64,000 nt of DNA from assembly GCF_016026235.1 (NCBI RefSeq), contig NZ_CP065613.1; one strand, written 5' to 3'. The position numbers are program-made. Of the stretch, positions 56,801 through 64,000 are shown piece by piece. Source of the stretch: Escherichia coli (GTDB taxonomy: Bacteria > Pseudomonadota > Gammaproteobacteria > Enterobacterales > Enterobacteriaceae). Each line of letters opens with the position of its first letter. Position 1 is the first letter of the stretch.

Positions 56801-59800
56801 CCAGGGGTGCAGGAGACTGCCGATGCCGTCGCTCATCTCATTGAGTTGGGATACGCCGATCAGCTTGTTCTCAGCCACGATGTCTTCCTTAAACAAATGT
56901 GGGCTAAAAATGGCGGTAATGGCTGGGGATTTGTTCCAGATGTTTTTCTGGCCTATCTGGCGGAGCGCGGCGTCGATAAAACGATCCTCAAAAAACTCTG
57001 TATCGATAATCCCGGACGATTATTGACCGCATAAAACCATTATCCCCCGGCACATTGCGCCGGGGGATGTCAATTAATACCCCGCCGTTAAATCATCCAC
57101 CAAGCGCGAGTCGGATGCGCCGTACAACTCACCATCCGACCCAACCATAATGCTTTGCGTGCTGCCCAACACCTCATTCAGCGCCACTTTCTGACCTTTT
57201 GCTTCCAGCAGCTTGAGCGTATCCGGACTAACCCCTTTTCAACACGCAGCTCGTCCGGCAACCACTGATGGTGGAAACGAGGCGTATTGGTCGCTTCGGC
57301 AACATTCATTCCACAATTGATGCTGTTCACCACCATTTGCAGCACGGTAGTGATGATCCAGCTACCGGTAACAAAGTGAGTACATAAAGGCCATACTGTC
57401 ACGAACAGTGCAAAAGTGGCTCTTCCGCAACCTAGGTGAAGATTTTCATGCCAGTGGACTCATTACCCTCCGCCTAAGTAGTTCAAGTCCGGCTCGACCA
57501 TACATCTGGCGTATCAGCACCTTCAGGCGATTTACATGACCTTCGACAACACCAGTACTCCAGCGACTGCTGATTGCCTCACGTATAGCCGCAGCATCAG
57601 CTTCCATCCCCGCAGCTACGCACCGAAGTTCTGCTGAGCCGCTTTCGTGGACCCGAGTGAACCAGCTGCTTAGCTGTGATTTATTTTAGGTTTTCAGAAT
57701 ACGGTAGAACTCGAGTACCAGTTGCTGCGCTATTTTCAACTCCGGTTCTTTTTCACACATCAGACTAATAAATCGGAAAGCATAATTTTCTTCACCCCTG
57801 ATTATTCTCCGGGGCATCAACCAGCGGCTTACCCGGGACACTGAAGGAAGTCTTGCGGCAGTAGTAACCGGTGGGATCCAGCCTTTACGCCATTTGGCAA
57901 CAGCATCCCTGACGATGGTTTCACTGCCTGTAACCCCCCTGGCCACCATTTCCCGCCATATCCGGCCGGAGTTATAATTACCACATTCTCGTTGCTCTTT
58001 TAACCACTCCCTCCATGGGTCCAGAAGCCCTCGCTTTGGAGGCCTAGTTGACATTTCAGGGAATGTTCCTGAACCCACCCAGCGACTGACTGTCACTCGC
58101 GACAGGCCTGTAATACGGGATATTTCCCTGAAACTACATCCCTTGTTATGCAGGGCCATAACCTCTGTCCAACGCTGATGCCGTTTTTTGCGGGTGTGCT
58201 GTTTAAGGCGTTCCAGACGACGGAGCGATGCTACAGGCACAGATATTTCTGGCTCAGGTGATTTCTTCAGTGATAACTCTCTGACAACAAGACGTATCAG
58301 AGGCATATGTCTGTACATCATTCGTTCAGGCTCATCACCAATATTTTTTAGCAGGTGCCATCGATAGGCCACCTGTCTGGCCTGAGGTGCACCTTCACGT
58401 GCTGCTGTCGCATAGACTCCACTGCGATCACGCGATACAACCTGTATTTCCGGACCTTTTCTGAACCAGGTCGCCAGCGTACGCTGATCACGGCCGGGAA
58501 GCAGGACCAGGGGGCGGTGAGTATCAAGATTGAATATTAACGTACCGTAACGGTGGCCCCAATGCCACGCCCACTCATCAATACCGACATGAGGCGCGCC
58601 TGACTGTTTCGTCTCCGGGGTATTGATAAGCCTGCGAAGAAGAGTATCAGCACTGCAACGGAGACCCGCTGCCGTTGCAGCCCGTTTTCCAGCCTCACCT
58701 CCAGCTATTAATCCCAGTTGACGTTGTTAATTTTGTAACGCCTGTGAAGACTGCTGGTGTGAACTGGCGAAGGGAGCAAGCGACTCGGCAAAAATTTTAC
58801 GTGACAAGCCGGGTTACGGCAGTACCAGTGGCGGACGGAAAATACAAGCCATAGCGTCTGCCCTGAGCAGGGTAGATGCTGTATCCGGCGCCGACGACAA
58901 CTATGAACAGAGTCGCTACGCTTAAAGCATTCAGGACATTGTGCTGTTTTGCGTTTTCCGTGGAGATGGAGGGTTATACCGTCAGAGCTAATAATTTGTC
59001 GACTGCATCGCCATCCGCAAGGTAACTTTAGAAGTGTCTTAAGAGAGTGCATTGCGTTGCCCATTAGACTGGCCCCCTGAATCTCCAGACAACCAATATC
59101 ACTTAAATAAGTGATAGTCTTAATACTAGTTTTTAGACTAGTCATTGGAGAGCAGATGATTGATGTCTTAGGACCGGAGAAACGCAGACGGCGTACTACA
59201 CAGGAAAAGATCGCTATTGTTCAGCAGAGTTTTGAACCGGGAATGACGGTCTCCCTTGTTGCCCGGCAACACGGTGTGGCAGCCAGCCAGTTATTTCTCT
59301 GGCGCAAGCAATACCAGGAGGGAAGTCTTACTGCTGTGGCCGCAGGAGAGCAGGTCGTTCCTGCCTCTGAACTTGCTGCTGCCATGAAGCAGATTAAAGA
59401 ACTCCAGCGCCTGCTCGGCAAAAAAACGATGGAAAATGAACTCCTTAAAGAAGCCGTTGAATACGGGCGTGCAAAAAAGTGGATAGCGCACGCGCCCTTA
59501 TTGCCCGGGGATGGGGAGTAAGCTTAGTCAGCCGTTGTCTCCGGGTGTCGCGTGCGCAGTTGCACGTAATTCTCAGACGAACCGATAACTGGAAAGATGG
59601 TCGCCGCAGCCGTCACTCAGATGATACGGATGTGCTTCTCCGTATACACCATGTTATCGGAGAGCTGCCCACGTATGGTTATCGTCGGGTATGGGCGCTG
59701 CTTCGCAGACAGGCCGAACTTGATGGTATGCCTGCGATCAATGCCAAACGTGTTTACCGGATCATGCGCCAGAATGCGCTGTTGCTTGAGCGAAAAACCG

Positions 59801-62800: not shown

Positions 62801-64000
62801 TGAAGGATCTTAAAACAGGTTTCCATAGTGCTCCTGGATTTTCTCTTTCTGGACATTGCCGTCTCCACTGGTTTAAACACGGCAATGAAGACTGTGGTGA
62901 AAAGAGTTAATTCCCGGAGTGACTGGCAGGATGCCAATCAATGATCGGAAGCATGCCAAATCGTGATCGATTTAGATGCCAAACCATGATCGATTCAGAT
63001 GCCATTTTGCACTTAGATCCTTGTTCACCAGAAAGTTTCATCCATTTTCTTCCACCCAAGTTGCGGAAGAACCACTTTTCATCCGTCGTTGACAGCTGTG
63101 AAGTATGCGGGAGAAAAAGCGAATATCTAACTGTAATAACTCAGGCCGGTACGAGTACTCGGGACGTCTACAATCATTCAGGGCAAAGTGCTAAAATTTC
63201 TCTATCCCGGGATGCCCCTACCAACGCAGCACTCCAGGAGATATCATTACAGCTCTGCAACTGATTTCCGCGACTGAACCGCTCAGTTCCTATCCTTCCA
63301 GTTGCCCTCCTGCAGCCCCCCTCTCCCTGCTGTATACCCCGGTACCACAACGCGGGCAGCACTTTTCCCCCTCATAATCTTCGTCACACATCACACAAAA
63401 CCACTTTCTCACCTTCACCGTATAATCCGGAACCGTCATGCCCTGCAGATGCAAACGACGGGCCTCTTTCTCTGCCGGGTCAAGCCAGGTGCATCGCAGC
63501 AGGATTTTCGCAGCAACAGTCATCTGGTCATGTTCAAACCACGGCGGTTGTCCGTCATTGCCCCGCTTAAGTGTTAACGGACAACCACAGGACACACAGC
63601 ACAAAACGTCCTGTCGGTTGTTCTTCGCGGCTTCTTTCGCCGTAACAAAATGGCCTTTGCTGTCATTCGCCATATAGCAGTTCAGAATTCGCATATCTCC
63701 TCCTTGTATCTTGACAATTGGTTAAAATAACTGTGATTAGATTTGGCAAGGTGTATGCAGCCCGATCCCTCAAGGGGTTCATAGCCCGTAGCTCAGCGAA
63801 TGGCGCATACACTGAGCCACTCATCAGAAACCCGAACAGTTGTCAGTACGCCATAACGCATTTGCAAGGATGGGTAATCATGAGTCAGCCAGGTTCACTT
63901 TGTGTGGGTATCGATGTTTCGAAAGCGATACTGGATATTGCCGCCAGCAGCGCTATTGAACAATTTTCTGTCGGCAATGACAGTGATGGCTTTGACGCCA

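Follow-up and report, generated by a model that had tools for sequence, protein, structure and literature searches.

Insertion sequences stacked beside cobU in Escherichia coli: an ISEc38-like relic interrupted by an IS21-family element and IS2

The window analysed here is a stretch of 64,000 nucleotides of Escherichia coli DNA (contig NZ_CP065613.1 of the RefSeq assembly GCF_016026235.1), in which three insertion sequence (IS) families, IS3 (represented by IS2), IS21 and ISL3, are stacked near the right end, as the initial annotation of the window had recognized. The question raised by this locus is whether these elements lie side by side, as they were read at that time, or one inside another, and in which order they arrived. 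The first feature from the left is a phosphotriesterase-like gene that ends at 57034; it is followed by a ggt-like remnant (minus strand), a broken ISL3-type transposase gene (minus), IS2 (plus), the istA and istB genes of an IS21-family element (minus), and about 85 bp whose end repeats, in inverted orientation, the sequence at 57396. Contrary to what had been supposed, the IS21-family element is not a neighbour of the ISL3-like gene; it and IS2 are both inserted inside one ISEc38-like element of the ISL3 family. The whole arrangement is very probably a three-layer nest, built by successive ordinary transpositions into non-functional DNA, with the ISL3 relic first, the IS21-like element second and IS2 last. 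The nest is of a known kind and implies no new biology.

The region 56000-64000 was inspected directly and its open reading frames (ORFs) were listed, while family calls were based on NCBIfam and Pfam profile scores against curated cut-offs. Junctions and insertion states were counted in 5,426 complete E. coli genomes from RefSeq, and the exact 36-nt IS2 junction was also sought in GTDB representative genomes and JGI metagenome contigs. The relic was reconstructed by joining 57396-59064, 60401-60419 and 63019-63095, which gives 1765 bp. In the literature search, ISEc38 and ISSso4 were met only in routine MobileElementFinder listings, with nothing about structure or duplication length.

Boundaries of the nested elements

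IS2 lies exactly where the initial annotation had placed it, together with its CCCAT duplication, as seen both from alignment to the K-12 copy IS2A and from empty sites. Positions 1-1331 of the two copies align with 0 gaps, the left inverted repeat is identical to that of K-12, and the right one carries 1 mismatch (45 nt compared). In strains NCTC9008 and MB46, no IS2 is present at the site, the flanks are contiguous and CCCAT occurs once; the single CCCAT in the empty site of NCTC9008 indicates that the pair in the window is a genuine 5-bp target duplication and not a coincidence. The left copy does hold a start codon, as had been claimed, because its CAT is the minus-strand ATG of the ISL3-family gene. 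This ATG stands at element position 97, which is also the start of the intact ISEc38-family coding sequence of strain M8.

Compared with K-12 IS2A (insC1/insD1), the window copy has the same length, no indels, the same orfA/orfB overlap, a 5-bp duplication and an OrfA identical to InsC, whereas it differs by 58 substitutions, by 12 replacements in OrfB, and by a slippery run of A7 where K-12 has AAGAAAA. With two IS2-specific NCBIfam models, the IS2 ORFs score 276 bits (NF006928, cut-off 229) and 704 bits (NF006918, cut-off 597), and the Pfam domains HTH_Tnp_1 and rve were recognized in them. The variant is represented by 1,067 records at identities of at least 99%. As a member of the IS3 family, IS2 is expected to move by copy-out/paste-in.

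The IS21-family element had been assigned to 60401-63010, which places its left end 19 bp too far to the left; it begins at 60420 (TGCG...) and ends at 63011 (...TGCA). An 18-nt motif is present in three direct copies at the istA-proximal end (62931, 62953 and 62976) and in one inverted copy at 60437, with no further occurrence within the window. Multi-repeat ends and TG...CA termini are typical of the IS21 family, in which the target duplication is 4-8 bp. The gene products reach 287 bits with NF033546 (cut-off 160) and 251 bits with NF038214 (cut-off 200), Pfam recognized rve, Mu-transpos_C_2 and IstB_IS21 (203 bits) in them, and 16 nt separate the istA stop from the istB start. MB46, which carries neither insert, reads GCGTTG CCCAT AACTTAAATCAG CTTAGAT CCTTGTTCACC at this place and runs uninterrupted from the single CTTAGAT into CCTTGTTC, and this empty site fixes both ends of the IS21-like element as well as its 7-bp duplication.

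The copy in NCTC9008 has the same insertion site, the same 7-bp duplication and the same length of 2592 bp at 99.8% identity, and differs from that of the window by five substitutions, which lead to two changes in IstA and one in IstB. The window and NCTC9008 copies also agree in the istA-istB order, the TG..CA ends and the multiple terminal repeats. Most of the other ISSso4-like copies are 96.7% identical to the window element and divergent in the last 19 nt. The name ISSso4 is taken from the label that the Prokaryotic Genome Annotation Pipeline (PGAP) gives to IstB in copies with identities of 99.8% and 96.7%.

Removal of IS2 had been thought to join the ATG of the ISL3-like gene directly to the end of the IS21-family element, but 19 bases of ISL3 leader intervene. 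These bases and the segment to the right of the IS21-like element align to the leader and left inverted repeat of the intact ISEc38 of M8, and the inverted repeat pair of the element (57396-57438 with 63053-63095) has 43-nt arms that are 77% complementary. The initial annotation let the ISL3 element end at its ATG and closed the stack at 63010, leaving off 84 bp (63012-63094) that include the left inverted repeat. Since nothing beyond TGTCA...TGACA is common to four independent ISEc38 copies, the true ends of the relic are set at 57397 and 63094. The left inverted repeat and the ATG are separated by the remainder of the 96-bp leader, and it is there that both inserts sit, 12 bp apart. The 1765-bp reconstruction is 100% identical to the uninterrupted element of strain 2013C-4991 and 95% identical, end to end, to the intact copy of M8, which PGAP labels as an ISL3-like element of the ISEc38 family.

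Table 1. Features of the IS nest and its left edge, in window coordinates.
Feature	Position	Strand	Remarks
ggt (gamma-glutamyltransferase) paralogue, 3' fragment	57074-57367	-	last 295 of 1743 nt, with a 1-nt deletion
29-nt spacer, GTAACAAAGTGAGTACATAAAGGCCATAC	57368-57396	.	outside the ggt alignment and the shared ISEc38 segment
ISEc38-like relic, whole	57397-63094	-	split into three pieces; 1765 bp without both inserts
Relic right inverted repeat and transposase pseudogene	57397-59064	-	ATG at 59064, stop at 57446
IS2 target duplication CCCAT, copy 1	59060-59064	.	includes the minus-strand ATG of the ISL3 transposase
IS2 variant	59065-60395	+	apparently intact; 1331 bp, 95.6% identical to K-12 IS2A
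orfA of IS2	59156-59521	+	
A7 slippery run	59419-59425		in the orfA/orfB overlap of IS2
orfB of IS2	59479-60384	+	
IS2 target duplication CCCAT, copy 2	60396-60400	.	
Stranded ISEc38-like leader, 19 nt	60401-60419	-	element positions 78-96; between IS2 and the IS21-like element
IS21-like target duplication CTTAGAT, copy 1	60413-60419		
IS21-family element	60420-63011	-	2592 bp, TG...CA ends, both genes intact
istB of the IS21-family element	60519-61274	-	251 aa
istA of the IS21-family element	61291-62826	-	511 aa
IS21-like target duplication CTTAGAT, copy 2	63012-63018		
Remaining relic leader and left inverted repeat	63012-63094	-	element positions 1-84

Order of the insertions

The relic is uninterrupted in about 2,785 of the 5,426 complete E. 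coli genomes, the IS21-like element occupies this exact site in six (NCTC9008, strain 10, PRO_A-1374-6M-A, OZ501679, fS149a and PRO_A-1482-6W-A), and the IS2 junction at this site is present in none, so that the most parsimonious order is relic, IS21-like element, IS2. A comparison with genomes lacking one or more insertions had been proposed by the initial annotation, and it was MB46 (neither insert) and NCTC9008 (IS21-like element only) that gave this order, the temporal sequence following by parsimony from the states observed. The GTDB and JGI collections likewise contain 0 exact matches to the 36-nt IS2 junction, and the IS2 insertion is private to the genome of the window among everything searched. 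Two apparent junction matches in complete genomes were discarded, as they consist of pieces about 200 bp apart that had been joined by the search tool.

The ISL3-like gene had been described as lying in two frames, which is correct in that a 1-nt deletion is present at codon 87 (around 58805), and incomplete in that two in-frame stops are present as well, both TAA, at codons 113 (58727-58729) and 460 (57686-57688). A codon-by-codon comparison with the intact M8 gene revealed 44 amino-acid replacements in addition. A genome free of both inserts has the stretch containing these lesions at 100% identity, which means that the gene had been inactivated before either element arrived, and the insertions were presumably selectively neutral since the gene receiving them no longer functioned. 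PGAP marks orthologous copies of the relic as pseudogenes. With the ISL3 transposase model NF033550, the fragments of the broken gene score 50.7 and 162.2 bits, below the 180-bit cut-off, while the intact, 95%-identical relative scores 376 bits and contains the DDE_Tnp_ISL3 and Zn_ribbon_ISL3 domains. The relic resembles the intact ISEc38 of M8 and of plasmids in its TGTCA...TGACA ends, the position of its ATG and its 539-codon frame, and is unlike them in being a pseudogene, in having no target duplication and in being split in three by two ISs.

According to this order, an ISEc38-like element of about 1765 bp would have settled long ago next to cobU, beside the ggt remnant, and its transposase gene would then have decayed through one frameshift and two stop codons. 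In one sublineage, an ISSso4-like IS21 element, which encodes the transposase IstA and the helper ATPase IstB, would have entered the 96-bp leader of the relic 12 bp upstream of the ATG, duplicating 7 bp (CTTAGAT). Finally, in the genome of the window, an IS2 variant would have inserted 12 bp away and duplicated CCCAT, including the ATG itself.

Several points weigh against this reconstruction. The order rests on parsimony, with no genome carrying IS2 only and with a sample made up of complete RefSeq genomes; the genome of the window lies outside the collections searched, and its closest relatives are not among the genomes compared. Moreover, no target duplication flanks the ISL3 relic, whose own arrival is therefore not reconstructable as a simple insertion, and the names ISEc38-like and ISSso4-like are borrowed from PGAP labels of near-identical copies.

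The picture from which the initial annotation started, three separate elements side by side with IS2 exactly between the ATG of the ISL3-like gene and the terminal repeats of an adjacent IS21 element, has some appeal when the window is read by itself, because the IS21-type 18-nt repeats start just 37 bp from IS2 and the intervening 19 bases could by eye pass as an IS21 end. This topology is ruled out by the empty-site genomes and deserves almost no credence: MB46, without the IS21-like element, keeps the 19 bases with one CTTAGAT and runs straight into 63019 onwards, and both the alignment of these bases and of 63012-63094 to the intact ISEc38 and the long inverted repeat described above tie the outer pieces to one element. 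It is equally hard to believe that the ISL3-like and IS21-like parts form one composite or chimeric unit moving as a whole, although ISSso4-like elements occur inside ISEc38-like relics in other genomes and plasmids and the ISEc38-family transposase has a stretch resembling the N-terminal helix-turn-helix (HTH) of IstA. The transposase of the ISL3 part is dead, about 2,785 genomes have the relic without any IS21-like insert, and in E. coli 99-3165 (3001-7404 of the stretch examined) an independent ISSso4-like insertion is found elsewhere, in the 3' part of the relic transposase gene (about window position 57587), with the duplication CATATA. A mobile ISL3 and IS21 composite was therefore rejected, as other nested copies have different internal junctions; the suggestion that the ISL3-like ORFs might prove to be part of the IS21-family element or of a known composite, raised with the initial annotation, was not borne out by the different site and duplication of 99-3165. 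The nested state of that strain is common to several genomes of the enterotoxigenic E. coli (ETEC) type.

The insertion sites of IS2 and the IS21-like element are independent and the window alone gives no ordering, so IS2 might in principle have come before the IS21-like element, or both might be ancestral, with IS2 precisely excised in the six genomes that have the IS21-like element only. Such a history is very improbable, considering that the IS2 junction is found in no genome against six for the IS21-like junction, and that a precise excision restoring a single CCCAT would be needed in every sampled relative; IS3-family elements rarely excise so precisely. A mis-assembly involving repeated IS copies is unlikely as well, given the perfect duplications that flank both nested elements. 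With the successive order of relic, IS21-like element and IS2 retained, one may still ask whether the short ISEc38-type leader is a preferred target for other ISs rather than neutral ground, an idea prompted by two elements within 12 bp and by the ISSso4-like elements inside ISEc38-like relics elsewhere. We regard this as improbable; if true, nesting of one IS in another would partly reflect target selection, for example of DNA structure or of end-like sequences seen by IstA/IstB or the IS2 transposase.

For annotation, the value of the result is that one interrupted ISEc38-like relic, and not three adjacent elements, should be recorded here. The IS2 junction, GCATTGCGTTGCCCAT/TAGACTGGCC, could be used to mark the strain or its lineage, while 6 of the 5,426 genomes make up a small clade characterized by the IS21-like junction. 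Judging from their sequences, the IS2 and IS21-like copies look intact and may still be able to transpose or to act as homologous sequence in recombination. The locus is an ordinary pile-up of well-known elements in DNA without remaining function, and the result is of small practical value.

Outer junctions and the surrounding island

The initial annotation also pointed to a ggt fragment at the edge of the stack, which is real: it is 92% identical to nt 1449-1743 of K-12 ggt, and PGAP describes it in NCTC9008, MB46 and 2013C-4991 as 'gamma-glutamyltransferase, frameshifted, missing N-terminus'. Similarity to ggt breaks off 29 nt before the end of the relic, and the spacer between them, which matches neither, could have been left by an earlier rearrangement. 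On the two sides of the relic, the flanks read (in element orientation) ...ACAGC and GTATG..., and no target duplication is present. Two simple ISEc38 insertions have 5-bp duplications, namely ATTAC/ATTAC in M8 (element at 1502-3265 of the M8 stretch) and AGTAC/AGTAC in pUTAK-3 (element at 302-2065 of the stretch examined); the target duplication of the ISL3 family is usually quoted as 8 bp, whereas these two ISEc38 copies show 5 bp. The lack of such a duplication around the relic suggests that one flank was probably rearranged. Two other ISEc38 copies are rearranged, have no duplication and adjoin truncated genes. The flanks of the relic show no similarity to those of ISEc38 in M8, so no shared insertion site was seen, and no alignment was obtained between the split zinc-ribbon gene of M8 and the uninterrupted zinc-ribbon genes of the window and one related locus.

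The stack had further been taken for a recombination hotspot that truncated the adjacent island. The relic without a duplication speaks weakly for this claim, while the distribution of the outer junctions speaks against it: the junction of the ggt fragment with the relic occurs in 2,648 of the 5,426 genomes and that of the relic with the right flank in 2,833, which indicates that any truncation happened long ago and without involvement of the IS21-like element or IS2. Being common to about half of the genomes, the frameshift, the two stops, the ggt fragment and the outer junctions are all older than both insertions. In related genomes, the neighbouring DMT-transporter gene is also a pseudogene, and some of these genomes have broken amidotransferase and phosphotriesterase genes. 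A neutral sink for insertions describes the region better than a truncating hotspot does.

The decaying island has been struck by IS2-type elements at least three separate times, as judged from the insertions of the window, MB46 and NCTC9008. In MB46, an IS2 lies 3.3 kb away in the same island and differs from that of the window by 1 base, while NCTC9008 has a 96.2%-identical IS2-type element within the neighbouring amidotransferase gene. As well, a 180-nt relic at 50693-50871, 84% identical to IS2 positions 1-180 (the left end), adjoins fragments of IS66 and IS4 where the island borders on cobU.

Besides the ggt remnant and the IS nest, the island beside cobU contains PfkB kinase, amidotransferase, DMT transporter and phosphotriesterase genes as well as zinc-ribbon and IS110 genes. 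An IS110-family transposase gene begins at the end of the window (63880-64000 and beyond); its counterpart in related genomes is annotated as a pseudogene, interrupted by an internal stop and located between two zinc-ribbon protein genes and an inovirus Gp2-family gene.

The intact ISEc38-family transposase of M8 (1597-3216 of the M8 stretch) has 539 aa and exceeds the ISL3 model in length by about 170 aa. Its residues 303-398, which correspond to about 57870-58155 in the window, match the N-terminal HTH of the IS21 IstA model (E=1.6e-16) and, on this profile match, are predicted to be an inserted DNA-binding domain within the ISL3 DDE transposase.

Wider context of the window

The window starts with a lambdoid prophage (1-25000), followed by serU and four asn tRNA genes, the ldtA-cobTSU stretch, which was assigned by collinearity with NCTC9008, and the island beside cobU. 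Terminase, portal and capsid genes lie under the matches in the prophage, which also carries four tightly clustered tRNA genes on the minus strand at 11365-11674 (Gly-TCC, Thr-TGT, Lys-TTT and Met-CAT). Coverage of at least 80% of this 25-kb stretch is reached by none of the complete E. coli genomes in the collection. The genes serU, asnT, asnW, asnU and asnV are all present within 26223-45990. With only 14.4 kb between asnT and asnW, the genome of the window has no yersiniabactin island (HPI), which is present at asnT in NCTC9008; the two genomes share the IS21-like insertion despite this difference. Finally, an overlapping direct repeat of about 688 bp with 92% identity (30726-31412 and 31335-32021) spans 30726-32021, and these copies are probably the Ig-like domain repeats of a yeeJ-type adhesin gene.

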